DNA from: Candidatus Firestoneibacteriota bacterium | Lineage (GTDB): Bacteria > Oederibacteriota > D2-FULL-39-29 > JBBTED01 | DNA length: 64,000 bases | Direction: 5' to 3' | NCBI GenBank assembly: GCA_038042445.1 | Contig: JBBTED010000067.1 | Location: forward strand, 15,309 to 79,308 | In this document: one piece after another, positions 4,651 through 63,171 of the stretch | How the letters are laid out: each line of letters begins with the position of its first letter | Numbering within the stretch: the stretch's first letter is position 1 | Made by a program: the position numbers and the translations under genes | Notes under the pieces: generated by a model | What the model was told of the DNA's origin: nothing | Database searches by the model: none | The model's input: only the letters and a program-made list of their open reading frames with translations

Positions 4651-5704
4651 AGATAGACTCGTACAAATAGAGTCAGAGTGTAAAGATTTGGAAAAGAGAC
4701 TTTCTGATTCCGCATTATTTTCTGCAAAAGAGGAATTTCAAAAATGCACAAAGCAATATTCCATTCTTATTCCAATACAGAGAAAGTTCAATGCTTATAA
4801 AAAGGTAAAAAATGACATTGAAGTTGTAACGCCATTGCTTTTGGATAGCGATCAGTCTATTCAGGAACTCGCAAAAGCTGAACTGGAAATATTTGAGAAC
4901 AGGAAGCGTGAGTTTGAGGAAGAATTGTATAAGGCAGTGTTTCCTGAAGAAAAAAACTCGGACAAAAACATAATTATAGAAATTAGGGCTGGTACTGGTG
5001 GCACAGAAGCTTCGATTTTTGCTGCAGATTTATTTAGAATGTATACAAAATATGCAGAGTCAAAAAATTTAAAAATAGAAGTTATGGATTCTCATCCTTC
5101 TACTCTTGGTGGGTATAAGGATATTATTTTTTCTATAATAGGTAAGACTGCAGCTGGGTTGTTTAAATATGAGTCAGGAGTGCATAGAGTACAAAGAGTT
5201 CCTGTAACTGAAGCAAGCGGCAGAATACATACTTCAACTGCTACAGTTGTAGTATTGCCTGAACCAGAAGAAGTAGAATTGGTTATAAATGCAGAAGATT
5301 TGAGAGTTGATACTTTTTGTTCTTCAGGACCTGGTGGACAAAGTGTAAATACTACTTATTCAGCAATTAGAATTACACATATTCCAACTGGCGTGGTTGT
5401 TCAGTGTCAGGAAGAAAGATCGCAGATAAAAAACAGGGCAAAAGCAATGCGTGTTTTGCGTGCTAGATTAGTAAAGAAAAATCAGGAAGACCAACAAAAA
5501 GAAATGTCGGCAGAGCGTAAAATTCAGATTGGTACAGGTGATAGGAGCGAAAAAGTCAGAACATATAATTTTCCTCAAAACAGAATTACTGATCATCGTG
5601 CAGGTTTGTCTTTATATAATCTTGAAGTGATAGTTAATGGTGAGCTTGACGAATTAATACAGGGATTAATAGCTGCAGAAAATAAGGAATCAGTTTCAAA
5701 TTAA
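4634..5704 (+). CDS. prfA: Peptide chain release factor 1
   Basis: GGQ motif, PVT anticodon-mimic motif (RVPVTE), RTYNFPQNR. Confidence 0.97.
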
Positions 5705-5752
5705 AATGTCATTCCCGCATGTATTAATAGGTCAGGCATCTTGCCTGACAAA
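5704..5752. repeat. Composite repeat (GTCATTCCCGC half + ATAGGTCAGGCATCTTGCCTGAC hairpin)
   Basis: Near copy at 32465-32516; hairpin part also at 29372. Confidence 0.75.
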
Positions 5753-5766
5753 CAACTATAAAATCA

Positions 5767-6618
5767 ATGACAATAAAAGATGCTATTACTTTTGGAACAA
5801 AGGTTTTAGAATCTATTAATATAGAAAATGCCAGATTTGAATCAGAAATAATTTTAGCTCATATTCTAAATATAAAACGGTATAACTTATATTTAAATTT
5901 TGCACAAGAACTTTCAAAACTCCAATCAAAAAATTATTCTTCTTATATAAATAAACGTAAAAAGCATATTCCACTTCAATATTTACTTAAATCTCAGGAA
6001 TTTATGGATGTGAAATTGTATATTGATAAAGGAGTTCTTATACCACGGCCAGAAACAGAGATTTTAGTAGAAAAATTTATAGAACTTGTTAAGAATAAAT
6101 CAAAAAAAATAAAAATTTTAGATATAGGAACAGGTAGTGGAAATATTGCAATTATGTTAGCGTTGAACTTAAACTGTGTTGTGTATGCAGCAGATATTTC
6201 TGTTGATGCTTTGAAAATAGCTAAATATAATGCAAAACAATATAAAGTTAGCGATAAAATTAAGTTTATACAAGCAGATATTTTGAATTTATTACCAACA
6301 TTTTGTGATTTTGACGCTGTTATTTCAAATCCTCCATACATAAAATCAGATGATATTGATAAATTGTCTGATGAGGTTTCAAAATACGAACCAAGAATTG
6401 CTTTAGATGGTGGTAAAGATGGATTATTATTTTATAAAAGTATTTTAAGTAAAATAAAAAAAATACTTAAGCCAAATGGTATTATTGCATTTGAAATAGG
6501 AATGGGACAAAAAAAACATCTTTTGCAAATATTAAATCAATTAGGCAATTTTACGGATATAAAGTTTATAAAAGATTATCAGAGCATAGACCGTGTAGTA
6601 TTTGCAAGGATGATTTGA
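5767..6618 (+). CDS. prmC: Release factor glutamine N5-methyltransferase
   Basis: LIPRPETE, DIGTGSG, SNPPY; follows prfA. Confidence 0.96.
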   Translation: MTIKDAITFGTKVLESINIENARFESEIILAHILNIKRYNLYLNFAQELSKLQSKNYSSYINKRKKHIPLQYLLKSQEFMDVKLYIDKGVLIPRPETEILVEKFIELVKNKSKKIKILDIGTGSGNIAIMLALNLNCVVYAADISVDALKIAKYNAKQYKVSDKIKFIQADILNLLPTFCDFDAVISNPPYIKSDDIDKLSDEVSKYEPRIALDGGKDGLLFYKSILSKIKKILKPNGIIAFEIGMGQKKHLLQILNQLGNFTDIKFIKDYQSIDRVVFARMI

Positions 6619-6626
6619 ATTGTATC

Positions 6627-6655
6627 TTGACAAAATCTTTTGGTTTTTATATCAT
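6627..6655 (+). promoter_or_regulatory. Promoter of the toxin-antitoxin pair
   Basis: TTGACA-17 nt-TATCAT. Confidence 0.6.
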
Positions 6656-6674
6656 TATAATAGGGGTGATATAT

Positions 6675-6872
6675 ATGTCGTCAAGTACACTTTCATTATT
6701 AGATGTTGAACGAGCAATCAAAAAATTTGAACCGGAAAAGCAAAGAAAATTACTTGTAAAACTTCCTTCACTTTTAAAAATAAAAGTAGAAAATTTAGAG
6801 CTTTTAAAACTTGCAGAAGAATCTTTTGAATTTTGGAAAAATCCCGAAGATAAAATCTATGACACTCTTTAA
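6675..6872 (+). CDS. Putative antitoxin
   Basis: 65 aa, RBS GGGGTGA, C-terminal AEESFEFWxNPEDxIYD, overlaps toxin gene. Confidence 0.7.
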   Translation: MSSSTLSLLDVERAIKKFEPEKQRKLLVKLPSLLKIKVENLELLKLAEESFEFWKNPEDKIYDTL

Positions 6873-7206
6873 TAGCGGGGATGTTGTATTAATAGGTTTT
6901 CCATTTACTGATTTGTCAGGTTCAAAGCAAAGGCCTGGTGTAATAATTTCATCAAAATTATATAATGAAAAAGGAATAGATGTTATTATTGCTGCTATTA
7001 CTTCACAGATTCAGGACAAAATAGAAAATGATGAATATTGTCTTACAGAAAAAGAGCAAAAGATTGCAGGATTACCAAAAAAGTCTATTATAAAAGTTGG
7101 CAAGATAATAACTATTGATCAACGATTAATTAGAAAGAAGCTGGGATATTTAACATCAGAAACATTAGCAAATATTAGAAATATCCTACTAAAAATTCAT
7201 ATATAA
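6859..7206 (+). CDS. mazF: PemK/MazF family toxin
   Basis: GDVVLIGFPFTD..GSKQRPGVIIS, AITS, GLPKKS motifs. Confidence 0.88.
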   Translation: MTLFNSGDVVLIGFPFTDLSGSKQRPGVIISSKLYNEKGIDVIIAAITSQIQDKIENDEYCLTEKEQKIAGLPKKSIIKVGKIITIDQRLIRKKLGYLTSETLANIRNILLKIHI

Positions 7207-7246
7207 AATAACGTAATAGACTTAGCTGTAACAATCATTTCTGTCA

Positions 7247-7597
7247 TCAATATTTGGATTTTTTCTTGAATACTTGTGAAAGAATATTAAAAGCCACTTT
7301 TTTATCTTCTACACTTTTTGCTCTGATGATATTGCTGATTTTATTTATATATGGGTCTACTTTGTAAATTACTACTGGCTTGTGAAATGCAAATAAATTA
7401 CTTAAAGAAATAGTCAGTGCTTCACAAATTCTTACCAGTGTTTCTATAGATGGAACATTTTTGCCTCTTTCAATCTGGGACAAATAACTCCAGTCTCTTT
7501 GTGTTTTCTCTGCAAGCTGTTCTAATGTCATACCCCTTTTATTTCTTTCGTTTCTGATGATTTTACCAATATATTTATAGATTTCAGTTGTTTCCAT
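7247..7597 (-). CDS. XRE-family HTH transcriptional regulator
   Basis: GMTLEQLAE...YLSQIERG..PSIETL; RBS AAGGAG. Confidence 0.9.
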   Translation of the reverse strand: METTEIYKYIGKIIRNERNKRGMTLEQLAEKTQRDWSYLSQIERGKNVPSIETLVRICEALTISLSNLFAFHKPVVIYKVDPYINKISNIIRAKSVEDKKVAFNILSQVFKKKSKY

Positions 7598-7679
7598 TGT
7601 TTCTCCTTTGGATTTTCAATATACCGTTAATACGACCAAAAGTGTATAATCTATAAGCACACCATTAGCAAAATACACA

Positions 7680-7708
7680 TTGACTATATACCCAAAATAT
7701 GGCATACT
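7680..7708 (+). promoter_or_regulatory. Promoter divergent from the first XRE gene
   Basis: TTGACT-17 nt-CATACT. Confidence 0.45.
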
Positions 7709-7772
7709 ATAATATAGAAAGATAAAGTTCAATTGTAACGAAATAGGTTATTGGTTCTATGTAAGGTTTTAT

Positions 7773-7862
7773 GTAGGGCAAGGCTTTAGCCTTGCGGATG
7801 CAGGCGGATGCAAACTTTGCTTAAACACGTGTCATTCCCGCGTGTAATAAGCGGGAATCCAG
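7773..7862. repeat. GTAG-type REP (7773-7796) plus GTCATTCCCGC-type palindrome (7831-7862)
   Basis: GTAGGGCAAGGCTTTAGCCTTGCG; GTCATTCCCGC...GCGGGAATCCAG. Confidence 0.8.
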
Positions 7863-7936
7863 TGTCTATTGTTGTATTACAAGTGAAACTGGGTTTAATG
7901 GTGGCTACTAAAAATGAAAGAAAATATGCAGAAATT

Positions 7937-8269
7937 TTATGTGAAAATTATTTTTGCAATTTTTATTAGTATGTCAATTTGTTTTGATGTTCTATTTTTG
8001 ATAACATTGAAAAGCTCTCTGTGTTTTCTATCTTTACTTTTCCATTTGCTTTCTTCAACGAACAAGTCAACAAGTGAAACATTTAAAGCATCTGCAATTT
8101 TCTGTAAAGTCTCCAAGGAGGGACCTTTTGCACCTCTTTCAATGAGGCCAATATAACTGTTATGCAAATTACTTTTTTCAGAAAGCTTTTCTTGTGTCAA
8201 ATTTTGTTCAGTTCTCAAGCATTTTATTCTATTCCCAAGCAATTTATAAAGCTCATTAAATTCGTTCAT
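7937..8269 (-). CDS. XRE-family HTH transcriptional regulator
   Basis: LTQEKLSE...YIGLIERG..PSLETL. Confidence 0.9.
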   Translation of the reverse strand: MNEFNELYKLLGNRIKCLRTEQNLTQEKLSEKSNLHNSYIGLIERGAKGPSLETLQKIADALNVSLVDLFVEESKWKSKDRKHRELFNVIKNRTSKQIDILIKIAKIIFT

Positions 8270-8376
8270 TTAGAGAATAAGTCTACATCAAAACCCACTA
8301 AAAGTGAAGTAACCCACAGTATTATTTTTATTGACTGTAGGTATTGTTTTATGTAATTATATTTATGGTAACACTG

Positions 8377-8399
8377 GTAGCCGCAGGCTTTAGCCTGCG
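8377..8399 (+). repeat. GTAG-type REP
   Basis: GTAGCCGCAGGCTTTAGCCTGCG; copies at 13535 (reverse), 33596, 43199. Confidence 0.85.
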
Positions 8400-8429
8400 T
8401 ATCTAGTAGAAACAAGGATGTGAAAATTT

Positions 8430-8777
8430 ATGAACTTGAGGCAAGGTGAAATTAAACAAATTGAAAGTGATATTAATCTCCAAAAAAGTAACGGTTGGAG
8501 TTCATTAGCGAGTTTTATGTATGCAGCAAGTAAATATCTGAATCGTATTGGTATGCAGATTAATAAGGATAATTTATATGACTTAAATATTGCTTGCCAT
8601 AGACAGTTAGGAATAACACAATATGCTAAAAATTCTATAATGCCATCAGATTATGCTTTTCCTAAATATGGTTTAGGAAAAGGTAAAACAGGCAAGAACA
8701 CAAAAAAATACCCAAAATTTTTGGAGAAAATTGATGGCAAAAAAGGTAAGAATTTTGAACTTGACTATTCCCTATAG
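8430..8777 (+). CDS. Hypothetical protein, probably 3'-truncated by a repeat element
   Basis: RBS AAGGA; stop codon lies inside the hairpin at 8770-8789. Confidence 0.5.
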   Translation: MNLRQGEIKQIESDINLQKSNGWSSLASFMYAASKYLNRIGMQINKDNLYDLNIACHRQLGITQYAKNSIMPSDYAFPKYGLGKGKTGKNTKKYPKFLEKIDGKKGKNFELDYSL

Positions 8778-8954
8778 CTTGCTACAGGGTTACAATATTT
8801 TGTCATGCCCGAATGTAGTAATCGGGCATCCAGAGTCTTGTTTTATCAATGTTTTAAAGACACTGGATTCCCGATAGAAACATTCGGGAATGACGGTATT
8901 ACTTAAGTATTTTTTAGTTTTTGGATACCCCGTAGCTTGCTACGGGGAGGTTCA
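8756..8954. mobile_element. Non-autonomous composite element: paired GCTTGC-loop hairpins enclosing a 93-bp palindromic doublet
   Basis: CCCTATAGCTTGCTACAGGG (8770) and CCCCGTAGCTTGCTACGGGG (8928); inner unit 8802-8894 has a reverse copy at 47332. Confidence 0.6.
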
Positions 8955-9054
8955 TTTTATATGATAATAAAACAAAATGTTATTTTAAAATTCGGGGTAA
9001 GTTCAGTGTCCCACGAATTATAAATGTAAAGATGCAACATTTGAAGCAAGTGAT

Positions 9055-9693
9055 ATGGCAGAACAATTAAAAAGTGAAATAGGAAAAGGTTTTGAAGATG
9101 TATTTATGAAAAAAAGTCTAAAAATTTTTGGGTTTATTCTTGGTGGCATTGTAGGTATTATATTTACCAAACTTTTTTTATTGAAGTCCTATGAAGATGA
9201 AAAAAAGAATGAGAAATTGACAGAGAAAGAAGAAGAAAAAAAGTTACATCAATTAGATGATTACTATGATGATTATATTCGAAGAAGAGATGAATTTAAT
9301 AAAATTAGATCAGATACTATGGATTCGGTTGATAAAATAATATTGACTTTATCAACTGGTACATTAGTTCTATCAATTACATTTTTAGATAAAATTGGAA
9401 AACCTATCAATTATTCTTTTATTTTAGTATGTTCATGGTGTTTTTTAATGGTTTCTCTCTTACTAAATATTCTTAGTTTTATATTTGCAAGAATAAATAT
9501 AGAAAACAAAATTCAGGATTTGGATGATAAATACGAAGAACGTAAAGAAGATAAGAAATATTTTGTTGAAAAAAACTTTATTTGGGAAAAGTGGACTGAT
9601 TTTTGTAATTATTTTGCTTTATTTTCATTTCTTATAGGTATTATTAGTTTTTTTATTTATGCATTAATAATTATATTTGATAATTGTAAATAG
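9055..9693 (+). CDS. Hypothetical membrane protein (about 4 hydrophobic segments)
   Basis: ORF with DKIILTLSTGTLVLSITF and further TM segments; start uncertain. Confidence 0.6.
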   Translation: MAEQLKSEIGKGFEDVFMKKSLKIFGFILGGIVGIIFTKLFLLKSYEDEKKNEKLTEKEEEKKLHQLDDYYDDYIRRRDEFNKIRSDTMDSVDKIILTLSTGTLVLSITFLDKIGKPINYSFILVCSWCFLMVSLLLNILSFIFARINIENKIQDLDDKYEERKEDKKYFVEKNFIWEKWTDFCNYFALFSFLIGIISFFIYALIIIFDNCK

Positions 9694-9707
9694 AATGGAG
9701 GTGCATT

Positions 9708-9764
9708 ATGGCCAGTAAAAAAACAGGTGGGAAAACACCATCTAAACCACCTAAAAAGAAATAA
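9708..9764 (+). CDS. Putative 18-aa basic micropeptide MASKKTGGKTPSKPPKKK
   Basis: Strong RBS GGAGGTG directly upstream of ATG. Confidence 0.5.
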   Translation: MASKKTGGKTPSKPPKKK

Positions 9765-10199: not shown

Positions 10200-10225
10200 T
10201 TTTGAAATTTAAAAAGAATAAAGAA

Positions 10226-10789
10226 ATGGATAATTTAAAAGATATTTATATTAGTTATTTCAATCAGATGAGAGATGGTGAATCAAATATTTTCAAATTT
10301 CTCACTACACTTTTTACTGCTATTGGAGGATTTTATATTGTTGTTAAAAATAATGTTGTTGAAAATAATTTAGATTGGTTATTGTTTTCAGCAATTGGAT
10401 CTACTATTGTACTTATATGGGGAATTCTTTATGTTTTATCAATAGGTTATACGCATAGATATTTGCAGGTAATAATGTGGTATTATGAAAATAAATTAAA
10501 ATTACCCAATTTCAAATCTTGGGATCCAAAAAAATTTAAAAAGTTGAAAGTATGCCAAAGCTTATTATTAGAACCTACTCCGGGAATTTATAAAATCCAT
10601 CTTATAGGATTTATTATGGGAATTATGTTAGTTTGGTATTGGTACGGATTTTTAAAAAATAACAACCATATTGGTTGTGTGATTATACTATTTCTTATTG
10701 TGTGGTTGCTTACTGCTTGTTTAAATTATTACTATATGAACAAACTAAAAAAAATAATTGAAAAAGGAATTAATAATGATAAAACTTAA
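10226..10789 (+). CDS. Hypothetical 4-TM membrane protein
   Basis: Four hydrophobic segments; overlaps next gene. Confidence 0.6.
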   Translation: MDNLKDIYISYFNQMRDGESNIFKFLTTLFTAIGGFYIVVKNNVVENNLDWLLFSAIGSTIVLIWGILYVLSIGYTHRYLQVIMWYYENKLKLPNFKSWDPKKFKKLKVCQSLLLEPTPGIYKIHLIGFIMGIMLVWYWYGFLKNNNHIGCVIILFLIVWLLTACLNYYYMNKLKKIIEKGINNDKT

Positions 10790-13481
10790 TAAATTTTTTA
10801 AAATTATTTTTATAGTAATAGTTTATAGTATAATTAACGATTTTACATATACTTATGCTGTAACTTATACATTAGACAGCACAGGAAATGTTGGAGGGTA
10901 TAACTCTATAGCCATAGACAGTAATAACAAAGTTCATATTGGTTATTATGATGTTACAAATGGAGATTTAAAATACGCAACGAATATATCTGGTTCATGG
11001 GTAACATCTACTTTGGATAGTTCAGGAACTGTTGGATGGTGGAGCTCTATAGCCATAGACAGTAATAACAAAGTTCATATTGGTTATTATGATGCTACAA
11101 ATGGAGATTTAAAATACGCAACGAATATATCTGGTTCTTGGGTAACATCTACTTTGGATAGTTCAGGAACTGTTGGATGGTATAACTCTATAGCCATAGA
11201 CAGTAATAACAAAGTTCATATTAGTTATATGGATTATACAAATGCAGATTTAAAATACGCAACAAATACATCTGGTTCTTGGGTATATACAACATTAGAT
11301 GATATTGGAAGTAGTTTAGATGGTTCTCAAAACCGTACTTCAATCACAATAGATAGTAATAATAAAGTCCATATTAGTTATGCTATGGGTTTTGGTGGTA
11401 ATTTAAAATATGCAACAAATACATCAGGTAGTTGGGTGTGTATATCATTAGGTATAGGATTTACTTCTTCAATAGCCATAGACAATAATAATAAAGTTTA
11501 TATAAGTTATAATGGGACAGATTTAAGATATGGTACAAACGCATCTGGTAGTTGGGTGACATCAACATTAGATAGTGCGTTCTCAAATTCTTTCATAGCG
11601 ATAGATAACAATAACAAGATTCATATAAGTTGTTTTGATAGTACAAATGCAGATTTAAAATATGTTACAAATGCTGGTAATACAGCACCAACATTATCAT
11701 GGACAGGCGAGGCAAATTATACTTCAGATGGAATAAATCCAGAAATAGGAAACACAAGTTCAACATTTATATACAGGATTAAATATACCGATACTGATAA
11801 TGATGCACCGGCGAGTGGGTATCCAAAGGTGCATATTAAGAAAGCAGGAGTTGAAATAAGCGGTAGTCCATTTACAATGAGTTATGTAAGTGGAAGTTAT
11901 AGCACAGGAGCAATTTATACATATTCTAAAACATTAAGTTCTTTGGGAACTGACTACACATATTATTTTGAAGCGCAGGATGTGTGGAATGAAGTAGCAA
12001 CAGGCACGCCAACAATCGCTGTTGATTCTCCTGATGTCAATAATGCTCCTGCATTATCTTGGACCGGTGAGACAAATTATGTATCTGACGGGTTAGATCC
12101 GCATACAGGAAATACAGCAATAACATTTACATACAGAGTGAAGTATACGGATGCTGATGCTTTAGCAAGTGGATATCCAAAAGTTCATATTAAAAAAGCA
12201 GGAAGTGAAATATCTGGTAGTCCATTCACAATGACTTATGTAAGTGGAACATATTCAGGCGGAGCGATTTACACTTATTCTAAAATACTTTCTACCGTTG
12301 GAATTGACTATACATATTATTTTGAGGCACAGGATGTATATAACGAAGTAGCAACTGGAATACCAACAACATCAGTAGATGCTCCTGATGTTTCTGCTAT
12401 TCCTCTTATTTCTCCAAATACAGCACCCATTTTTTCCTGGACAGGTGAAACAAATTATACGGCTAATGGGATTTATCCTACTTTAGGAAATGCGAGTACT
12501 ACTTTTGTTTTTAGGGTGAAATATACGGATGCAGATAATGATGCTCCTGCATCAGGATATCCTAAATTGTATATTAAAAAAGGTGGTGTAGAAATTTCTG
12601 GTAGTCCGTTTGCTATGGTGACAGTAGATAGTAGTTTGTATTCAGCAGGTCCAATTTATACTTATTCTACGGTTTTAACTAAATCAGGTGCTGATTATAC
12701 TTATTATTTTGAGGCGAAAGATGTATTAAATGGTCTTGCAACAGGAATACCTACAAATCCTTTTGATGCACCTGATGTTAATGTAATTCAGGCAAATCAA
12801 GATACCAATATAGTAAGTGAAGACGGAACCAGTATTGATATTCCAAAGGATACACTAAATCCAGGAGTTGCAATTAACATCACTATTCCTTCTGTTATTC
12901 CTGAAGGAGAAGTCCAAAATGCAGGATATTCAGTTAAGCAGACAAATATAACAAGAGAAATAACTACATCAGATGGGAGTAAAAATTTTAATAAGGAAAT
13001 AAAAATATCTATTCCATTTAAAGATTCTGATGTTGCTGGAATAAATAAACAAAACCTGAAATTATTCTATTATTCTGAAGAAAGGAAAATGTGGATTTTA
13101 ATTCCATCTGCTGTAGTTGATACTAATAAAAATACAATTTCTATATTAGTTACACATTTGACAATTTTTAGGATAATGGCACTTGAGCCAACATCAGCAG
13201 TATTAGTTTTATATAACAATTTGTTTGACCCTGCAAATAATGAAAAATTATATGTTCGTTATGATATTGTGCAAGAAGTAGATGTTACAGTTACTGTGTA
13301 TAGCATCAAGGGGCAAAAGATAAAAGAATTATTTAATGGTAGAAAAACTGCTGGTAGTTACACTGATTTAACCTGGGATGGCAAGAATGAAGATGGAGAG
13401 GTTGTAGCAAGTGGTATTTATGTTGTGTATATTTCTGCAGGGGATTTTAGAGATAAGAAAAAAGTGGTGGTGGTGAAATGA
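10776..13481 (+). CDS. Secreted repeat protein: beta-propeller repeats, three Ig-like repeats, C-terminal FlgD-Ig/T9SS-like sorting domain
   Basis: Signal peptide; 6x SIAIDxNNKVHI..DLKYATN.SGSW; 3x APxLSWTGExNY; WDGKNEDGEVVASGIY...KKKVVVVK tail. Confidence 0.85.
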   Translation: MIKLNKFFKIIFIVIVYSIINDFTYTYAVTYTLDSTGNVGGYNSIAIDSNNKVHIGYYDVTNGDLKYATNISGSWVTSTLDSSGTVGWWSSIAIDSNNKVHIGYYDATNGDLKYATNISGSWVTSTLDSSGTVGWYNSIAIDSNNKVHISYMDYTNADLKYATNTSGSWVYTTLDDIGSSLDGSQNRTSITIDSNNKVHISYAMGFGGNLKYATNTSGSWVCISLGIGFTSSIAIDNNNKVYISYNGTDLRYGTNASGSWVTSTLDSAFSNSFIAIDNNNKIHISCFDSTNADLKYVTNAGNTAPTLSWTGEANYTSDGINPEIGNTSSTFIYRIKYTDTDNDAPASGYPKVHIKKAGVEISGSPFTMSYVSGSYSTGAIYTYSKTLSSLGTDYTYYFEAQDVWNEVATGTPTIAVDSPDVNNAPALSWTGETNYVSDGLDPHTGNTAITFTYRVKYTDADALASGYPKVHIKKAGSEISGSPFTMTYVSGTYSGGAIYTYSKILSTVGIDYTYYFEAQDVYNEVATGIPTTSVDAPDVSAIPLISPNTAPIFSWTGETNYTANGIYPTLGNASTTFVFRVKYTDADNDAPASGYPKLYIKKGGVEISGSPFAMVTVDSSLYSAGPIYTYSTVLTKSGADYTYYFEAKDVLNGLATGIPTNPFDAPDVNVIQANQDTNIVSEDGTSIDIPKDTLNPGVAINITIPSVIPEGEVQNAGYSVKQTNITREITTSDGSKNFNKEIKISIPFKDSDVAGINKQNLKLFYYSEERKMWILIPSAVVDTNKNTISILVTHLTIFRIMALEPTSAVLVLYNNLFDPANNEKLYVRYDIVQEVDVTVTVYSIKGQKIKELFNGRKTAGSYTDLTWDGKNEDGEVVASGIYVVYISAGDFRDKKKVVVVK
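10904..11285 (+). repeat. 141-bp coding tandem repeat (about 2.7 near-identical units)
   Basis: Unit starts CTCTATAGCCATAGACAG at 10904, 11045, 11186. Confidence 0.9.
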
Positions 13482-16447
13482 GAGAAAAATGGATTCCCGC
13501 TTTCGCGGGAATGACAGAATGTAGTGGAAATTCTCGCAGGCTAAAGCCTGCGGCTACAACTACATTGTTTGTAATGATGATTTTTATTTTGCCTGTTTTG
13601 TGTAATGCAGGGGTGGGAACAACTGGGGGTGTGTTTCTTGAGGATTCTGTAGGTGCAAGACCTTATGGTATGGGTTCTGCATTTTCTGCTATTGCTGATG
13701 ATGCAAATAGTATCTATTCAAATCCTGCTGGTTTTCATTATCTTGCCTATCCTGAAATAACAACAATGTATAATAAAGCATTGATGGATACTTCATTAAG
13801 TTATATTGGGTATATTCATCCTTATGAAAATATCGGAACTTTTTCCGGGTCATTTTTATTATTTGATGGTGGAGATATAGAGCTGAATTATTTAGATAGC
13901 ACAAGTGAAAAAGTGAAGGCAGGCCAGGATTGGGCCGTAACTTTAGGATATGGCAGATCTATAGGGAATTCAGAAATATTTTTTGGTGGGGCTAATATAA
14001 AATTGGTACGTAGCACATTGGTAAATAAATATTCTGCAATAGCAATAGCGATGGATGCAGGATTGTTGTATCGCACAATTGATAATAAGCTTTCAATTAG
14101 TTTAGCATTTCAAAATTTAGGTACGAAGTTGAAATATAAAAATATAGGTGATTCTCTTCCTTTTACTTCTAAATTTGGAGTTGCCTATAGAATTTTAGAG
14201 CTTGAAGGACATTCAGTATTACTTGCAGGAGATTTTTCTCTTAATTTTGTAAAGAAAAATATTGGAGTTGAATATTGGGTAATGCAAATGTTCGCATTAA
14301 GACTTGGTGCAAAATTGGGATATAATCCAAATAGCTATACTATGGGTTTCGGGATAAATGTTTTTTCTGATACAAAATTGGATTATGGATATTCTCCAAT
14401 GATAGATGAAACAACGCATAGGATTTCGTTATCATTTAAGTTTGGTTCACAGGATAAAATTACACTTGCTGATAAATACGAAGAAAAAGGAATGTATGCA
14501 CGTGCGCAATATATCCGCAATCCAGATGATTATATGTACGCAAAGGCAAATACAATAAAAGAAAAAGATGGATTTATACCTATTATAACATCAATAGAGC
14601 CAAAGAAAGCAGGTCCGGGAACGGAAATTAAAATATTCGGAGAAAAATTTGGGAAATATAGCAATGTAACAATAGGAGATGTTTTTGCAGAGGTTATAAA
14701 ATCAGAAGAAAAAAGAATAATAGCGAAAGTGCCGAATATAAAAGCTGGAGAATCAGAAGTAGTTGTGCAGACAGACAAAGGGGTTTCACTTTCAAAAACA
14801 TTATCAGTGATGCCATCAAAACCAGCAATGCTTGAAGTTTCAGAAATAACATTTAAAGATGAGAATCAAGATAATATTTTGGGAGCAGAGGAAACCGGAA
14901 ACATAATAATAACAGTTAAAAATCAGAAGGGTGCTGGAGAGTCGTTTGGAGTGAAGGTTAAACCAGTGTGTACTTCAGCAAAGAATGATCTGTTTTTTGA
15001 TAATGAAATAAATATAGGAAATATTGGTTCTGGAGAAGAGAGAAAAGTTGAAATTCCAGTTAAAGCTGGATTAGATTTAACAACAGGCAAAGCGAGTTTT
15101 AAATTGAGTTTTACTGAAGCGAATGAATATAATCCAGATCCAGTGAACATAACATTTGATACACATAAATTAGAGCCGCCTGATATAGAATTAGCGAAAT
15201 TTGAGATAGACGATGGAATGTATCCATACAATCCGGAAAAATTAGCATCAGGAAATAACAATGGAATACTTGAACCCGGAGAACAAGTTGAAATAAACGC
15301 AGTTATTGTAAACAAGGGAACAGGTCCAACAAAGAATGGAGTTGTAAAAGTTATTTGTTCTGATCCTAAAATCAATATTTCAAGTTTAAGTCAGAGTTTA
15401 GAGTTTGATTTAGGTAGTATAGAGCCGGAAAAATGGAAAGAAATAAAGTTTGCGATAGAAGTTAAAAAACAATATAAGGGTGAACAGAATCTGCCTGTAA
15501 AACTACAGTTCAGTGAAGCAAGAAAAATGTTTAACAAGGATTTGGCAATGAACATAGGATTAGGCAGGGTGTATGCAAAAACACAAGATGTTGTTATAAA
15601 AGGAAAATCGTTTGATATTGCTATTCCAACAATTACTTCTTTCGGAGATGATTTAATTAACATACCTGCTTATGCAACAACAGAAAAGAAGAATGCTTAT
15701 GCAGTAGTGGTCGGAATAGAAAAATACAGGGATGTGGTGTCAGCGGAATATGCGGCAAAGGACGCACAGTCAATAAGAGATTATTTAATTAGCGCAATGA
15801 AATTTAAAGAAGAGAATATTAGATTTGCTCTAAACGAAAGAGCAAGCAGGAATGATTTAATCAGATATTTCAATGTGGAGTTAAAGAACAATGTTGAAAA
15901 GGATTCTTTGGTGTTTGTATATTATTCCGGGCATGGTGCCCCGGATGCAACAACAGGCGATACATACATCGTTCCTTATGACGGAGACCCGAATACAATA
16001 AAAGACAGCGGGTATTCGTTAAAGCAGTTGTATGAGGTATTAAGCAAACTACCAACTAATAAAATATTGGTTGTGATAGACGCGTGTTTCAGCGGTGCAG
16101 GCGGAACAAGAACGCTTTTAGCAAAAGGAGCAAGACCATTAGTAGTGAGTAAGGATACAGATACCGGGAATGCGATAGCAATCACAGCAACAGGAGCAGG
16201 ACAAATAAGCGGGACTTATGACGAGAAACAACACGGGTTATTTACATATTATTTTTTGAAAGGTATTCAGGGTGAAGCGGATATAAACAAAGACAAGGAA
16301 ATAATGTTAAGCGAGTTGTATGGATATTTAAAGCCAGAGGTTATAAGGAAAGCAAGAAAAGACAACAGGGACCAGGAACCGCAGATATTGCCATCAGTTA
16401 ATCAGATAGGTGAGTTTGAAAAATTACCATTAGCAATATTAAAATGA
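13478..16447 (+). CDS. PorV/PorQ-like beta-barrel fused to IPT/TIG and Ig-like domains and a C-terminal caspase-family (C14) peptidase
   Basis: GARPYGMGSAF..IADDA.SIY.NPAG; ITSIEPKKAGPGTEIKIFG; AVVVGIEKY, YYSGHG, IDACFSG, HGLFTYYFL. Confidence 0.85.
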   Translation: MREKWIPAFAGMTECSGNSRRLKPAATTTLFVMMIFILPVLCNAGVGTTGGVFLEDSVGARPYGMGSAFSAIADDANSIYSNPAGFHYLAYPEITTMYNKALMDTSLSYIGYIHPYENIGTFSGSFLLFDGGDIELNYLDSTSEKVKAGQDWAVTLGYGRSIGNSEIFFGGANIKLVRSTLVNKYSAIAIAMDAGLLYRTIDNKLSISLAFQNLGTKLKYKNIGDSLPFTSKFGVAYRILELEGHSVLLAGDFSLNFVKKNIGVEYWVMQMFALRLGAKLGYNPNSYTMGFGINVFSDTKLDYGYSPMIDETTHRISLSFKFGSQDKITLADKYEEKGMYARAQYIRNPDDYMYAKANTIKEKDGFIPIITSIEPKKAGPGTEIKIFGEKFGKYSNVTIGDVFAEVIKSEEKRIIAKVPNIKAGESEVVVQTDKGVSLSKTLSVMPSKPAMLEVSEITFKDENQDNILGAEETGNIIITVKNQKGAGESFGVKVKPVCTSAKNDLFFDNEINIGNIGSGEERKVEIPVKAGLDLTTGKASFKLSFTEANEYNPDPVNITFDTHKLEPPDIELAKFEIDDGMYPYNPEKLASGNNNGILEPGEQVEINAVIVNKGTGPTKNGVVKVICSDPKINISSLSQSLEFDLGSIEPEKWKEIKFAIEVKKQYKGEQNLPVKLQFSEARKMFNKDLAMNIGLGRVYAKTQDVVIKGKSFDIAIPTITSFGDDLINIPAYATTEKKNAYAVVVGIEKYRDVVSAEYAAKDAQSIRDYLISAMKFKEENIRFALNERASRNDLIRYFNVELKNNVEKDSLVFVYYSGHGAPDATTGDTYIVPYDGDPNTIKDSGYSLKQLYEVLSKLPTNKILVVIDACFSGAGGTRTLLAKGARPLVVSKDTDTGNAIAITATGAGQISGTYDEKQHGLFTYYFLKGIQGEADINKDKEIMLSELYGYLKPEVIRKARKDNRDQEPQILPSVNQIGEFEKLPLAILK

Positions 16448-17541
16448 GAAATAAAACGGTTTTGTCATTGCGAGTGAAACGAAGTAATCTTGGGATTTAT
16501 CTAGTATTTTTTCTTGTTGTTGTTTTTTGTGGGTGTGCTACGACACCAAAGTCAAAACCGGATTTAAAAGATAAATCCGATAAACTTTTTCAGGAACTTG
16601 GAAAAGAAGAAACTCCGGATATTCAACAGAATAAAGAAATGAAACAGATGGAAAAGGAGTTGGATAAAACGCCCAATAAATCAGACCAAACAGTAGAACA
16701 AGCGTCTCGCTTGTCAGAACAACAGCCATCAATGGTAGGACAGCCGTCTCGGCTGTCAGAAGAAATTTCTTTTGAAGAAACAGGTGAAGGGTTCGCGTCA
16801 AAATACGAACGGAGAATAGAAGCAGAAAAACGTGCAGAGGAGAATGCTTTATCAAAAGCGCTAAAGAAAATAGGCACAGATGTTTTTGACAGTTTCAGCG
16901 ATGCAATGGCTCAATCCGGAAAAACACAGTATCAGTTCGTTGCGAAATGTCTTTATATCGGCACAAGCGGATTAGTGTCTTATGAAAGAACTGGAGAGCC
17001 GATTTTTACAGAAGAGACAAATGGAACAAAGTGCGTTCTTAAAATAAAAGGCACGGTTTATTCAAAAGGTAAGCCAGACCCTTCTTATGGGGTTAAAATA
17101 GATAAGAATTCCGGGATGGATAAACTGATTTATAATTCCGGGGATGAAGTCCAACTAAAATTTTCTGTTACAAAGGATTCACATATAACTATTTTAAATA
17201 TTGATGAGGAAAAGAACGTTTATCTGATTTATCCAAATAAGTTTGTTAAGGGAAATATACTGAAAGCAGGAGAAAGTTTTGAAATACCGGGTAACTTGGG
17301 AATAAAAATGCAGGCAGTATTACAGGAAGGAAAGAGCGAAACAGTTGAATTACTATACATAATCGCAACAAAAACCAATTCGTTGTTTTTATCTGAGGAT
17401 AGCAAAGAGATTCTTTTATCAACAGATTACACATTGTTTTCAATCGGAGAATTTAAAAGGGCTATGGAACGGATTGGAAAACTTAATCGTGATGAGTGGA
17501 CAATGATTGTTTTGCCATATACGATAGTAAAAGGTAAATAG
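16444..17541 (+). CDS. Lipoprotein with C-terminal DUF4384-like domain
   Basis: Lipobox FCGC; Y..GDEVQLKF.V.KDS.I.ILNID....YLIYPN. Confidence 0.75.
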   Translation: MRNKTVLSLRVKRSNLGIYLVFFLVVVFCGCATTPKSKPDLKDKSDKLFQELGKEETPDIQQNKEMKQMEKELDKTPNKSDQTVEQASRLSEQQPSMVGQPSRLSEEISFEETGEGFASKYERRIEAEKRAEENALSKALKKIGTDVFDSFSDAMAQSGKTQYQFVAKCLYIGTSGLVSYERTGEPIFTEETNGTKCVLKIKGTVYSKGKPDPSYGVKIDKNSGMDKLIYNSGDEVQLKFSVTKDSHITILNIDEEKNVYLIYPNKFVKGNILKAGESFEIPGNLGIKMQAVLQEGKSETVELLYIIATKTNSLFLSEDSKEILLSTDYTLFSIGEFKRAMERIGKLNRDEWTMIVLPYTIVKGK

Positions 17542-17553
17542 TTTATAGAATAT

Positions 17554-17641
17554 GTTATGCTGAATTCATTTCAGCATCTGTAGGGGTGGATTTATCCGAC
17601 CAGATATTGTAGTTGTTTTGTAGTTGCCGACTTTGGTTGGC
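17554..17641. repeat. Cluster of three palindromic repeats
   Basis: GTTATGCTGAATTCATTTCAGCATCT; GTAGGGGTGGATTTATCCGACC; GTAGTTGCCGACTTTGGTTGGC. Confidence 0.65.
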
Positions 17642-17657
17642 AAAGGAGGAAAAGAAA

Positions 17658-18215
17658 ATGGGAAAAGGTAATGTAGTCGCTCAATTTATTGAGCATAAGG
17701 TAGTTGCAAAGATTGGTTTGCTGATTGTTTTAGCAGTATTTGTTATAGTTGGTTGTGCATCAATGAAACCAATGTGGGTGGATAAAGGAAGTGCTGCGTT
17801 TGAGAAAGGCAAAGAAAAGGTGTTTTATGGTGTTGGCACAGCGAGTGCTGAAATTAAAGACAAAGCATTAAGAATAGAAACAGCGGATAACAGAGCAAGA
17901 GCGAGTTTACAGAAGATATTTGACACATATACAGCGTATTTAATGAAGGATTATCAGGGACAGGACGGAGTAGTTGTTGAAAGGGCTGTAAAAACATTTG
18001 CTGCTGGGAATTTATCTGGAGTTGAAATAACAGACCATTTTACTGAAAGCGATGGCACAATATATTCTTTAGCGAAACTTGATTTAGAGACATTCAAGCA
18101 GGCAATGGAAATGGCAAAGGAAGTTAGTACTATAGCAAAGGAACATTTGCAAAAGAAAGCAGATGTTATGTTCTCTGAATTAGAAAAAGAAGAAGAAAAA
18201 AGAGGAGCAAAGTAA
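17658..18215 (+). CDS. LPP20-like lipoprotein
   Basis: RBS AGGAGG; lipobox IVGC; KPMWV, FYGVG.A, ADNRARA. Confidence 0.75.
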   Translation: MGKGNVVAQFIEHKVVAKIGLLIVLAVFVIVGCASMKPMWVDKGSAAFEKGKEKVFYGVGTASAEIKDKALRIETADNRARASLQKIFDTYTAYLMKDYQGQDGVVVERAVKTFAAGNLSGVEITDHFTESDGTIYSLAKLDLETFKQAMEMAKEVSTIAKEHLQKKADVMFSELEKEEEKRGAK

Positions 18216-18257: not shown

Positions 18258-18285
18258 GTAGGGAACAGGATTATCTGTTCCCTAC
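18258..18285. repeat. GTAG...CTAC palindrome (REP-like, possible terminator)
   Basis: GTAGGGAACAGGATTATCTGTTCCCTAC. Confidence 0.7.
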
Positions 18286-35603: not shown

Positions 35604-35900
35604 ATGGCAAAACAAATGTTAATTTATATACAGGAAGAACAAAAAAATATGCTTTCGGATTTTAGTAAGGTAACAAAAAAATCTGTATCTGAACTTGTAA
35701 GGGAAGCAATTGATTCATTTTTAGAGAGGTATAAAAAGAAACCTGTTTCTCTTAGTGATGCTTTAAGAATTTCTTCAGGTGCATGGAAGGGTAGAGAAGA
35801 TATTAAAGATACAGAAATGTATGTCCGAAAAATTAGAAAAGAATTTACTGAATCATTTGAAAAAAAATCAAATAGATATGCAAAGAAAATTTCTGCTTGA
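35604..35900 (+). CDS. Ribbon-helix-helix antitoxin
   Basis: QMLIYI...SVSELVREAID; GAWKGR; overlaps PIN gene. Confidence 0.8.
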   Translation: MAKQMLIYIQEEQKNMLSDFSKVTKKSVSELVREAIDSFLERYKKKPVSLSDALRISSGAWKGREDIKDTEMYVRKIRKEFTESFEKKSNRYAKKISA

Positions 35901-36261
35901 TACAGATGTTCTTATAAATCACTTAAGGGATATTGATACAAAAACAATATTGGAATTATCTGCTAAAGGAGAAATTTTCATATGTGCTATAACTAATTTT
36001 GAAATATTGCGTGGTATGAGAAAAAATGAAGAAGATGATACACTTCTTTTGCTGCAGACAATAAAATCATTAGAGATTACTAAAGATGTAGCAGCAATAG
36101 CTGCAAAATACTATAATATCTACTTTAAATCACATGATTTGGAATTACCGGATATATTTATTGCTGCTGTTGCCAAGTTTAATCAACTAACCCTAGTTAC
36201 AATGAATAAAAAGCATTTTCCAATGAAAGATATTGGGGTTATATCTCCGAATGTTTCTTGA
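35878..36261 (+). CDS. vapC: PIN-domain VapC toxin
   Basis: LLDTDVLI, FEI.RG, PD.FIAA.A, LVT.N.KHFP. Confidence 0.9.
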   Translation: MQRKFLLDTDVLINHLRDIDTKTILELSAKGEIFICAITNFEILRGMRKNEEDDTLLLLQTIKSLEITKDVAAIAAKYYNIYFKSHDLELPDIFIAAVAKFNQLTLVTMNKKHFPMKDIGVISPNVS

Positions 36262-50851: not shown

Positions 50852-52066
50852 ATGGAACAGTGGAAGAAGAATTTATATGCATTATGGGGAATGCAGTTTG
50901 TTAGTGTGCTTGGTATGAGTATGATTTTGCCATTTATACCATTTTACATACGAACTTTAGGAATTACAAATTTAAATGATGTGTCTTTGTGGAGTGGTAT
51001 AACTATGGGTATAGGATTTATTTTTTCTGCGATTTTTTCACCTATATGGGGTGATTTTAGTGATAGATATGGCAGAAAAGTGATGATAATTCGTGCTGTT
51101 TTTGCAATAGCAATACTGAATTTATTGATGGCGTTTGCTCGCAATGTATATGATTTATTGATACTGAGGATATTGCAGGGATGTTTTGGTGGGTTTGTGG
51201 GTGCATCAGCAGCTTTAGTTTCAACATCTGTTCCACAACAAAAAATGGGTTATGCATTTGGTATACTTCAAACATCTATGATTGCAGGTAGTATTGGTGG
51301 CCCATTTATTGGTGGTGTCCTTGCAGATTTAGTTGGGTATCGCTTTGTATTTATTTTAACAGCAACTTTTATTTTTATAGGTGGATTGATTGTGACAATA
51401 ATGGTTAAAGAGGAAAAACATCTTTTAAGTAAAGAAAAAGGCGGAGGAATTATTGAAAATATAAAATCTGTTTTTGCATCTAAACAATTATTCGTAATAA
51501 TGTTAGTGCAATGTGTTATACAGATAGCTGTAATGGTTTTACAGCCAATACTACCTTTATTTATATCAAGTTTTCAAAAGGATGTTAAATATGTAGCAAC
51601 TATAACAGGTTTAGTATTTAGTTCAACTGCAATTACAACTTTATTTGCATCTTCTTTTTGGGGAAAAAAAGGAGATGTTTTAGGTCATAAAAAATCACTT
51701 TCTGTTTGTTTGCTTGGTTCTGCAATTTTAATGGCTCCACATTTTTTCATAAAAAATATCGGACAGCTTTTATTACTAAGAATGGGGCTTGGAGTTTTTG
51801 TTGCTGGAATTTCTCCATCAACTCAAACAATGATTACTGCATATATTCCAAGAAAAAAAAGAGGTGGAATGATGGGTATTGCTAATAGTTTTTCAATGAT
51901 AGGTATGGCAATGGGCCCTTTATTAGGAGGTTTTCTTGGAGCTAAATTTGGATTAAGAATTCCATTTCTTGTTACGAGCGCATTATTATTTATTACATTC
52001 TGGCTTGTCTATAAACTTGTTAAAGAACCAGTTAATACTGAGTTTATAGCTACAGGAATTGAATGA
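50852..52066 (+). CDS. MFS transporter, DHA1/MdtG-like
   Basis: WKKNL, PIWGDFSDRYGRK.M, RILQG.FGG, GPFIGG. Confidence 0.9.
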   Translation: MEQWKKNLYALWGMQFVSVLGMSMILPFIPFYIRTLGITNLNDVSLWSGITMGIGFIFSAIFSPIWGDFSDRYGRKVMIIRAVFAIAILNLLMAFARNVYDLLILRILQGCFGGFVGASAALVSTSVPQQKMGYAFGILQTSMIAGSIGGPFIGGVLADLVGYRFVFILTATFIFIGGLIVTIMVKEEKHLLSKEKGGGIIENIKSVFASKQLFVIMLVQCVIQIAVMVLQPILPLFISSFQKDVKYVATITGLVFSSTAITTLFASSFWGKKGDVLGHKKSLSVCLLGSAILMAPHFFIKNIGQLLLLRMGLGVFVAGISPSTQTMITAYIPRKKRGGMMGIANSFSMIGMAMGPLLGGFLGAKFGLRIPFLVTSALLFITFWLVYKLVKEPVNTEFIATGIE

Positions 52067-52101
52067 AAAAAGACAAAGCAATAAAAAAATTGGAGGTAAA
52101 A

Positions 52102-53694
52102 ATGTATAAAATTATTTTAATACTTGTGTGTTTTTATGTGATTGTTTGTTCACGAGAGGGATTTGCTCAGAAAAATGTTGATTCTGAAAAATGTTTTAGT
52201 TGTCATGCTGAAGTTAAGGAATTGTGGAGTTTAGGGAGACATAAACAACTTAATTGCACACAATGCCATAGTTTTTTAAATGAACATAATGAAGATTTTG
52301 AGAAAAAACCTGTTACAAATTTTGATCCTATGGTTTGTGGTAAATGCCACAAGAATCAATTTGAAACATTTTTTGAGGTTAATCTTAAAAAGCCAGCAAG
52401 AATTGAAAAATCTTTGTTGACAGAGCGTTCTCCAAATCCATTTTGGGACAAATTGATGATGGGGCATGGTTTTACAAAAGAGCACAATGTTCCAAGAAGT
52501 CATGCTTATATGCTTTTGGATCATTTGGTTGTAGATAGAGCTTATGGTGGCAGATTCCAGCCTAAAAACGGATGGGCATATACTATTACAAATACTCCTG
52601 TTAAAGTATGGGATGTTCTTGAAGATAAATATCCTGATACAAAAGAACACAAATCATTTATTCCTGAAAGTGCTGCTGCAGCAAATCCTGTATGTTTGCA
52701 ATGTAAAACTAATGATAGTATTTTGAAATGGAAATATATGGGAGAAAAAGATAAAAGTGCAAAATGGGATAGAACATCTAATCCTGTAGAATATGTAAAA
52801 GATTTGCAAAATATTATAAGTTGTGTTCATTGTCATGACCCTCATGCTACAAAACCAAGAATTGTCCGAGATGGTTTAATTCATGCACTAACCCGTGATG
52901 AAAAAGATACATTATGGCATAATGATACTAAACAAACTCCAATTAAAGTTGTTGATTTCAGGGATTTCAGAAAAATAGCGATTCTTGATAAATATGATGC
53001 AAAACTTATGTGTGGACAATGTCATGTGGAGTATAACTGTAATCCAGGAGTAAATCCTGTTACAGGCGAAAAGGTTGGGTTCAATGACATAAGGACAAAT
53101 CATTTTCCGCTTAAAAATGTTTTTCAGATTTATGAGCATTATAACAAGCTTGAGTTTCGTGATTTCAAACATAGTTTGACTGGTGGGTTGCTTTTTAAGG
53201 CTCAGCATCCTGAGACTGAAGTATTCTGGAATTCAAAGCATGATAAAGCCGGGGTAAGCTGTAATAATTGCCATATGCCAAAAATAAAAGACAAAGATGG
53301 AAAAATTTTCACATCACATTGGCAGACAAGCCCAAAAAATTACATAAAAGAAACGTGTTTGAAATGTCATCCGCAATGGACGAATGAGCAGGCAGTGTAT
53401 GCAATTGATTCAATTAAAAATCATATTAAAGGTAAGATGAGAAAGGCAGAATTTTGGCTGAGCAATTTAATTGATAAAATTGTAGAATCCAAAAAAACTG
53501 GAATAGATGAAAAAATTATTAAAGAAGCACAGGAACAACATCAAAAAGCCCATATTCTATGGGAATGGTGGACTGCAGAAAATTCAGATGGCTTCCACAA
53601 TCCAGACCAAGCAAGAGAGTCTTTAACTAAATCCGTAGAAGAATCCAAAAAAGGCATAGACCTATTAACAAAAGCTATATCAGAGAAAAAATAA
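52102..53694 (+). CDS. Octaheme cytochrome c nitrite reductase (ONR / extended NrfA family)
   Basis: 7 CxxCH + 1 CxxCK (CLQCK); CHVEYNC, KAQHPE, AENSDGFH; RBS GGAGG and signal peptide. Confidence 0.9.
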   Translation: MYKIILILVCFYVIVCSREGFAQKNVDSEKCFSCHAEVKELWSLGRHKQLNCTQCHSFLNEHNEDFEKKPVTNFDPMVCGKCHKNQFETFFEVNLKKPARIEKSLLTERSPNPFWDKLMMGHGFTKEHNVPRSHAYMLLDHLVVDRAYGGRFQPKNGWAYTITNTPVKVWDVLEDKYPDTKEHKSFIPESAAAANPVCLQCKTNDSILKWKYMGEKDKSAKWDRTSNPVEYVKDLQNIISCVHCHDPHATKPRIVRDGLIHALTRDEKDTLWHNDTKQTPIKVVDFRDFRKIAILDKYDAKLMCGQCHVEYNCNPGVNPVTGEKVGFNDIRTNHFPLKNVFQIYEHYNKLEFRDFKHSLTGGLLFKAQHPETEVFWNSKHDKAGVSCNNCHMPKIKDKDGKIFTSHWQTSPKNYIKETCLKCHPQWTNEQAVYAIDSIKNHIKGKMRKAEFWLSNLIDKIVESKKTGIDEKIIKEAQEQHQKAHILWEWWTAENSDGFHNPDQARESLTKSVEESKKGIDLLTKAISEKK

Positions 53695-53714
53695 TGAGGA
53701 GATAAATTCTACTT

Positions 53715-54257
53715 GTGTTAAAACTTTTACTAAAGATATTTTCGACGCCAAAAAATATAATTTTTATAAATCCAGATTACTATAATCAAATAGAAATTAT
53801 CACTATTGGAGAAAAGATACAAGACAAGGTAAAACGATTATTTCGAGGATCTCTTGCTATCAGACAGGTAGATGCTGGTTCTGATAATGCATGTGAACAG
53901 GAGCTTGTTGCTCTATCTAATGCTTTTTATGATATTGAGCGTTTTGGTATTCATTTCGTTGCTTCTCCAAAACATGCGGATATGCTTATGGTGACTGGTC
54001 CTGTAACCAGAAATATGGTTGAAGCAGTGAAAAGAGCATACGATGCTACACCTGATCCAAAAATTGTTGTTGTTGTTGGAGATGATGCGATAAACGGTGG
54101 AATATATAACGGATCCTACGCAACGCAAGATGGAGTGAATAATATTATACCAGTAGATTATCAAATTCTTGGAGATCCGCCATCTCCCAAAATAATTCTT
54201 TGTCACTTATTACATATATTAGAAATTCTTGATTGTAAATCGTTAGGATTAAAATAG
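53715..54257 (+). CDS. NuoB/HyfI-like small subunit with Cys-to-Asp substitutions
   Basis: QVDAGSDNACE, VASPKHAD, TGPVT, VGDDA, GDPP. Confidence 0.88.
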   Translation: MLKLLLKIFSTPKNIIFINPDYYNQIEIITIGEKIQDKVKRLFRGSLAIRQVDAGSDNACEQELVALSNAFYDIERFGIHFVASPKHADMLMVTGPVTRNMVEAVKRAYDATPDPKIVVVVGDDAINGGIYNGSYATQDGVNNIIPVDYQILGDPPSPKIILCHLLHILEILDCKSLGLK

Positions 54258-54258
54258 T

Positions 54259-56310: not shown

Positions 56311-56313
56311 TTT

Positions 56314-57893: not shown

Positions 57894-57901
57894 AATTAAT
57901 T

Positions 57902-59344: not shown

Positions 59345-59345
59345 T

Positions 59346-60914: not shown

Positions 60915-60922
60915 TTTAATAA

Positions 60923-60967
60923 AAATCCCCCTTAGTCCCCCTTTAATAAAGGGGTTAGGGGAGATTT
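60923..60967. terminator. Palindromic repeat between convergent operons (probable bidirectional terminator)
   Basis: AAATCCCCCTTAGTCCCCCTTTAATAAAGGGGTTAGGGGAGATTT. Confidence 0.65.
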
Positions 60968-60969
60968 TA

Positions 60970-63159: not shown

Positions 63160-63171
63160 AGATTACTCTCC

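Follow-up and report, generated by a model that had tools for sequence, protein, structure and literature searches.

A PorV/PorQ-family barrel fused to a caspase, with tail-bearing and lipoprotein neighbours, in a Firestoneibacteriota genome

Caspase homologues are numerous in bacteria, and the site of action or the substrate is known for few of them. Where such an enzyme acts, and on what, is raised as a directly testable question by a four-gene module (g1 to g4) of a Candidatus Firestoneibacteriota bacterium (GenBank assembly GCA_038042445.1), as one of its genes encodes an outer-membrane barrel fused to a caspase, which fixes the caspase at the outer membrane, while the operon names three candidate partners. 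The module lies in a stretch of 64,000 nucleotides (contig JBBTED010000067.1, positions 15,309 to 79,308, forward strand), which is called the window below and to which all coordinates refer unless another locus is named. The reading preferred here, with a probability of about 0.45, is a complex in which a caspase is tethered to the outer membrane, acts in the periplasm and is coupled to a surface protein docked by its tail.

The barrel-caspase fusion and its partner proteins

The N-terminal part of g2 (residues 48–322) matches the PorV/PorQ family NF033709 of NCBIfam at 154.4 bits (cutoff 90), but stays below the equivalog cutoffs of PorV (52.5 vs 250 bits) and PorQ (85.6 vs 220 bits), and by these profiles it is a member of the PorV/PorQ family, yet neither PorV nor PorQ proper. 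A profile of seven homologues matches PorV of the solved type IX secretion system (T9SS) translocon (PDB 6h3i_F, E 5.2e-11), and an AlphaFold2 (AF2) model built on a 31-row alignment (mean predicted local distance difference test score, pLDDT, 79.5) finds the PorV chains 8gl6_F and 6h3i_F in Foldseek (E ~1e-12, TMt 0.59–0.63), while UPF0164 is matched weakly. An earlier note on this DNA had proposed a PorV/PorQ-like barrel that anchors a caspase in the outer membrane, and had named a non-barrel N-terminus as the case that would overturn it; profile and fold matches both point to PorV, and since the N-terminus is a PorV-like barrel, the anchoring of the caspase is supported as well. Directly after the barrel follows a conserved helical neck with an invariant EEKG.

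Beyond the neck, a TIG domain (residues 368–439, E 2.7e-9) and two Ig-like domains lead to a caspase domain, which matches Peptidase_C14 at 55.4 bits (residues 741–970, cutoff 21.4, E 9.4e-15). The intact His-Cys dyad that the same note had read lies where it was placed (His819, codon 15932–15934; Cys870, codon 16085–16087) and is invariant in 7/7 full-length homologues. The model matches the caspase folds of MALT1 (3v4o, TMt 0.72) and GSU0716 (3bij, TMt 0.59); the EACC1-associated C14 subtype misses its cutoff (75.4 vs 140), and Peptidase_C13 is matched weakly (E 0.0043). Relatives of the Ig-caspase unit occur in fusions with PDZ, S41 peptidase and TolB-like parts. A loop after Cys870 (residues 876–886), modelled with low confidence and containing basic residues, may be an autoprocessing site. 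Characterised non-metazoan C14 enzymes are reported to cleave after Arg/Lys (PMC5756287), and cleavage by g2 would probably be of this kind. Two GC-rich perfect palindromes, TCCCGCTTTCGCGGGA (13495–13510; chance expectation 0.01) and CGCAGGC-TAAA-GCCTGCG (~13536–13553), occupy the 5' end of g2 (13493–13553) and encode an N-terminal insert, IPAFAGMTECSGNS, which the other full-length homologues lack.

The protein encoded upstream, g1, ends in a tail that matches Pfam FlgD_ig (35.2 bits, cutoff 27) and, marginally, the T9SS type A sorting domain TIGR04183 (24.2 bits for the whole protein and 27.4 for the isolated tail, cutoff 23). Its blade-like repeats appear to have been duplicated recently, as they coincide with a 141-bp tandem repeat (10882–11285, 2.9 copies, 93% matches). 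The ESM Atlas returned no result for g1 (score 0.77).

Both genes downstream encode lipoproteins. The DUF4384-like lipoprotein of the earlier note is confirmed in g3, which carries a lipobox (Cys31) and matches DUF4384 (PF14326) at 54.8 bits (cutoff 27, E 1e-14), and whose linker is disordered and lysine-rich (11 K in 79 residues). The g3 family is rare (19 clusters), and similar FlgT_N+DUF4384-type lipoprotein clusters are present in other phyla. Fusions of DUF4384 to proteases, caspases among them, have been reported (PMC7475262; bioRxiv 10.1101/2022.08.17.504292). The LPP20-like assignment of g4 stands in part: its direct LPP20 (PF02169) score is below the cutoff (16.3 vs 25.9 bits) and no family of Pfam or NCBIfam is matched above threshold, but 38/42 aligned members of its family, which counts 438 homologues, match LPP20 at E≤0.01, and its AF2 model (pLDDT 85.9) best matches Lpp20 of Helicobacter pylori (5ok8, E 4.9e-4, TMt 0.57). 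By transitivity and by predicted fold g4 is thus LPP20-like and divergent. A profile comparison of g4 with the N-terminal domain of g3 gave an hhalign probability of 1.2%.

The four genes fill positions 10776–18215 and are co-directional (Table 1). Their first three are coupled by ATGA overlaps, as had been noted before, at 13478–13481 (where the TGA stop of g1, 13479–13481, lies within the ATGA of the g2 start) and at 16444–16447, while g3 and g4 are separated by a gap. For g4, the ATG at 17658, preceded by AAGGAGG, is most likely the true start, and public records hold the 185-residue form. The palindrome after g4, which has a T-run on the minus strand only, is a possible operon end. Promoter scanning was at chance level (61 found vs 59 expected). 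The g3-g4 spacer contains two further hairpins (~17556–17600), and a short palindrome (GCTCAAT-TT-ATTGAGC, 17679–17694) falls within the signal-peptide region of g4.

Table 1. Features of the four-gene module (window coordinates)
Feature	Position	Strand	Description
g1	10776–13481	+	ATG start at 10776, alternative TTG at 10758; secreted protein, 901 residues: signal peptide, six blade-like repeats (residues ~30–300), three ~125-residue repeats, unassigned region, C-terminal tail
g1 tail	13191–13478	+	residues 806–901; T9SS type-A-like/FlgD-Ig sorting domain
g2	13478–16447	+	989 residues: PorV-like barrel, helical neck, TIG, two Ig-like domains, C14 caspase
g2 barrel	13619–14443	+	residues 48–322; strands in residues 93–321, last strand ISLSFKF
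g2 neck	14456–14569	+	residues 327–364; helical, conserved
g2 TIG and two Ig-like domains	14579–15571	+	residues 368–439 and ~450–698
g2 C14 caspase domain	15698–16387	+	residues 741–970
g3	16444–17541	+	DUF4384 lipoprotein: lipobox Cys31, K/E/S/Q-rich linker, conserved N-domain (residues ~108–205), DUF4384 (residues 230–311), conserved C-terminal motif
g4	17658–18215	+	LPP20-family lipoprotein (divergent), 185 residues; open reading frame opens at TTG 17613
Palindrome after g4	18258–18285		11-bp stem

Recurrence of the module and exchange of the passenger

A scan of species-representative genomes yielded four loci (L001 to L004), of which L001, in a metagenome-assembled genome (MAG) of Candidatus Firestonebacteria, is the only one with a full-length match. 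It encodes a tail-bearing protein, an ATGA junction, the fusion (46% identity) and a small unassigned protein, and further two TIG-Ig-caspase paralogues that lack the barrel and bear lipoprotein signals, a DUF4384 gene (43% identity to g3), an LPP20-like gene (43% to g4) and a WD40-kinase. DUF4384 and LPP20-like genes thus follow the fusion a second time, and the module recurs. The three caspase paralogues of L001, one barrel-fused and two lipoproteins, are located at 4734–9745 and 11675–14707 of that locus, which besides the WD40-Ser/Thr kinase also encodes a small outer-membrane-protein-like protein of 208 residues and a further paralogue of g4 (28% identity).

The remaining loci lack the caspase. 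In L002 and L004, both from one Elusimicrobiota MAG, a tail-bearing protein is followed by a stand-alone PorV-like barrel of 339 residues, and in L003 a full-length g1 homologue (48% identity over residues 4–551) overlaps a PorV-like protein of 641 residues with a different C-terminus. Right after the barrel stop of L004, preceded by a GC-rich palindrome, lies a C-terminal remnant of a g3-like gene, in frame (2779–2886 of that locus), which is likely the scar of a deletion that removed the caspase and most of g3. The conserved-tail gene is directly upstream of the PorV-like gene in 5/5 loci, and the tails of ~90 residues are conserved (mean column identity 68%), in contrast to the variable remainder of these proteins. 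All five tails match TIGR04183 (E≤0.01) and the C-terminus of the PorZ model, and four of the five match that of the PorU model. The comparison supports a tie between the tail-bearing gene and the barrel gene, and the adjacency in all five loci suggests that the barrel may dock the g1 tail. The start of g1 is overlapped by an open reading frame for a membrane protein of 195 residues (10202–10789), which has no family match and no homologue in L001 to L004 at E≤1e-3.

More fusions are found among protein clusters. A word-indexed search, in which the best 8000 candidates were scored, returned at least six other full-length g2 clusters with 45–53% identity. After a phmmer search of 1.84 billion representatives, 15 chosen matches were compared with NCBIfam, and eight of them (P0260, P0262, P0265, P0266, P0268, P0271, P0276 and P0318) contain both PorV_fam (E≤1e-21) and a caspase, with P0266 and P0271 scoring under the 90-bit cutoff of PorV_fam. 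With P0003 and P0006, the fusions amount to at least ten clusters at 50% identity (868–1099 residues) among the 1.84 billion; P0009 and P0012, considered as well, were ruled out, as they have no PorV_fam match. On these sequences the barrel-caspase fusion is rare yet old. Equal longest-contig sizes of g2 and g3 homologues (11846; 363642) and of g3 and g4 homologues (10238; 3733; 10916) are an indirect hint that further members of the three families are linked.

The part carried by the barrel is exchangeable, and the swaps occur directly after the neck. In P0261, whose cluster holds a Candidatus Firestonebacteria MAG record named PorV/PorQ family protein, the barrel is 88% identical to that of g2 and the similarity extends through the neck, after which a CsgG/LpoB-like domain follows (CsgG, 31.7 bits, cutoff 20.8); P0314 and P0394 switch likewise to a CsgG/LpoB/FlgO-like domain after the barrel. 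A tree of the barrels with 22 rows (after removal of three duplicates; P0271 dropped, having no BLAST match at 1e-5), whose rows were chosen from g2 matches and are hence biased to caspase forms, does not unite the caspase-bearing barrels in one clade: stand-alone forms nest beside caspase forms with support 99/97, and at least four changes of passenger state are needed. A kinship of the fused CsgG/LpoB-like domains with g4 or with the g3 N-domain was considered and rejected (hhalign probability 0.2% and 0.1%, respectively). The nearest named relatives are from Firestonebacteria and Elusimicrobiota, and the best explanation is an envelope module conserved in uncultured diderm bacteria of Firestonebacteria/Elusimicrobiota type.

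Orientation of the caspase, proposed mechanism and rival explanations

In known proteins, CsgG/LpoB/FlgO-like domain types are periplasmic. PorV is a 14-stranded barrel of the FadL family (PMC9143113), and the DSSP string of the g2 model is readable as 14 strands between residues 93 and 321, the last being ISLSFKF; with this even number, a C-terminal passenger would lie on the side of the N-terminus, which is the periplasm. The caspase of g2 therefore most likely faces the periplasm by the model, and a periplasmic C-terminal extension has been proposed for FadL-like proteins of Treponema pallidum (PMC8407342). Such an orientation weakens the picture of a PorV-type shuttle or of cargo processing at the cell surface.

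In the proposed complex, the PorV/PorQ-family barrel of g2 would sit in the outer membrane as an anchor, with its outer face holding the type-A-like tail of g1 in the manner of the PorV-PorU and PorQ-PorZ pairs of Bacteroidota. From the last barrel strand, the helical neck and the three Ig-like domains would carry the caspase, its active site intact, into the periplasm, where it would perform limited cleavage, probably after Arg/Lys. The two lipoproteins g3 and g4 may contact the caspase as partners, regulators or substrates. Several points weigh against this proposal. The strand count is a manual reading of a secondary-structure string rather than of coordinates, and there are phyla in which lipoproteins can reach the cell surface. 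The caspase-less barrels of L002, L003 and L004 keep a tail partner, and the caspase is thus not required for the tail-barrel pair. No T9SS core genes (SprA/Sov, PorKLMN) are seen within the window, though 64 kb says little about a genome; the profile comparison links neither g4 nor the g3 N-domain to the CsgG-like domains fused to sister barrels (0.1–0.2%); and L001 is the only independent full-length locus with context.

If the passenger were exposed instead, g2 would be a fused PorV-PorU analogue, a surface caspase on an Ig stalk that removes the g1 tail and may also attach g1 to the surface. The order of barrel, Ig domains and tip indeed resembles inverse autotransporters, and PorU belongs to clan CD, as does the C14 caspase. 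The adjacency of tail gene and barrel gene in 5/5 loci and the weak Peptidase_C13 match would suit it, as would the description of PorU as a surface sortase which PorV anchors and by which the tail is cleaved (PMC8545088). However, the 14-strand reading places the passenger in the periplasm, sister barrels bear CsgG/LpoB-like passengers, the tail-barrel pair is kept in caspase-less variants and the paralogous caspases of L001 are lipoproteins, which together make the analogue improbable. A looser association, in which the barrel tethers a general envelope housekeeping protease and g1, g3 and g4 are mere neighbours, is rather unlikely as well: the repeated swap or loss of passengers on the barrel tree (at least four changes in 22 rows), the g4 family (438 matches) being far wider than those of g2 or g3, and the FlgT_N+DUF4384-type lipoproteins of other phyla speak for it, while against it stand the ATGA coupling, the gene order kept in L001 at 43–46% identity and the rarity of the g3 family (19 clusters), which equals that of the fusion.

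A role in signalling or defence would make the module a trans-envelope switch, with the state of g1 controlling the periplasmic caspase, and its cleavage of g3 and g4 serving as a signal or as a means of envelope damage; a possible proteolytic signalling system had been suggested in the earlier note. In some Csx30 proteins, on which a caspase-like protease acts, the C-terminal domain is reported to be DUF4384 (bioRxiv 10.1101/2022.08.17.504292); the disordered linker of g3 is rich in lysine, and a WD40-Ser/Thr kinase adjoins the L001 module. On the other side, no system-specific model of anti-phage defence was satisfied in PADLOC, which gave a generic caspase match for g2 and none for g1, g3 or g4, and the module has neither a regulator nor a sigma/anti-sigma gene and no phage or island context. 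This explanation seems doubtful to a high degree, and there is similarly little to favour a far-reaching form of it, an outer-membrane-spanning proteolytic switch in which the tail-docked surface protein reports outside events to the covalently attached periplasmic caspase and the DUF4384/LPP20 lipoproteins are cleaved to signal or kill. Such a switch could, at long odds, repeat the Craspase-Csx30 logic in the envelope, with a barrel family known so far from type IX secretion as its base.

Related systems and genomic surroundings

Among the closest known relatives of the tethered periplasmic complex preferred here is the T9SS attachment complex of Porphyromonas gingivalis, in which PorV and PorQ hold PorU and PorZ (PMC8545088): both combine a PorV/PorQ-family barrel, a partner with a type-A-like tail and a cysteine peptidase at the barrel. 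Unlike that complex, the module has barrel and peptidase in one chain, its peptidase is of the C14 type rather than PorU-like and is probably periplasmic, and its window shows no T9SS core genes. Its lineage also falls outside the groups reported with T9SS in the surveys cited (PMC11205867, PMC5445135). PorP/SprF-like barrels likewise come with a tail-bearing surface protein and a periplasmic lipoprotein, PorE (PMC9143113), but their tails are of type B and no protease is present, whereas the module has a type-A-like tail and a PorV/PorQ-like barrel. The FadL-like proteins of T. pallidum, to which the weak UPF0164 match of g2 relates, share the FadL-family barrel with a presumptively periplasmic C-terminal extension (PMC8407342), but these extensions are alpha-helical and without protease. 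Bacterial orthocaspases resemble g2 in the C14 fold, the His-Cys dyad and the association with DUF4384 (PMC7475262); in the module, DUF4384 is in a separate lipoprotein, and the accessible parts of the orthocaspase descriptions do not mention a fusion to an outer-membrane barrel. H. pylori Lpp20 (HP1456), a lipoprotein and the best fold match of g4, differs from it in sequence (20% identity), in an extra C-terminal helix and in gene context.

Literature searches, whose coverage excluded subscription journals, found no description of the barrel-caspase fusion, the four-gene module or the swappable passenger, and these appear to be new, while the parts of the module are known. The pairing of type-A-like tails with PorV-type barrels outside the lineages listed with type IX secretion, and a passenger that can be either a caspase or a CsgG/LpoB-like domain, bear on the origin of the T9SS attachment complex.

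The earlier note had placed the module on a mobile island, which the surroundings do not support. Upstream are rho, prfA and prmC, followed by the gene of a MazF toxin, a pair of HTH genes and open reading frames without assignment, and downstream is murA; no integrase or transposase is among the family matches of the window proteins, megablast against plasmids and phages gave no match, and the composition is unremarkable. The toxin gene, of MazF/PemK type, and the HTH genes, which are divergent and of the HTH_3 family, lie at 6811–8269, between prmC and the module, and a VapC-like gene at 35779–36261. The region 52063–63918 encodes an NrfA-like multihaem cytochrome, a hydrogenase-4-like membrane complex, an acetyl-CoA synthase/carbon monoxide dehydrogenase subunit and an FeFe-hydrogenase-like protein, which points to an anaerobe, possibly an acetogenic one, as the host.

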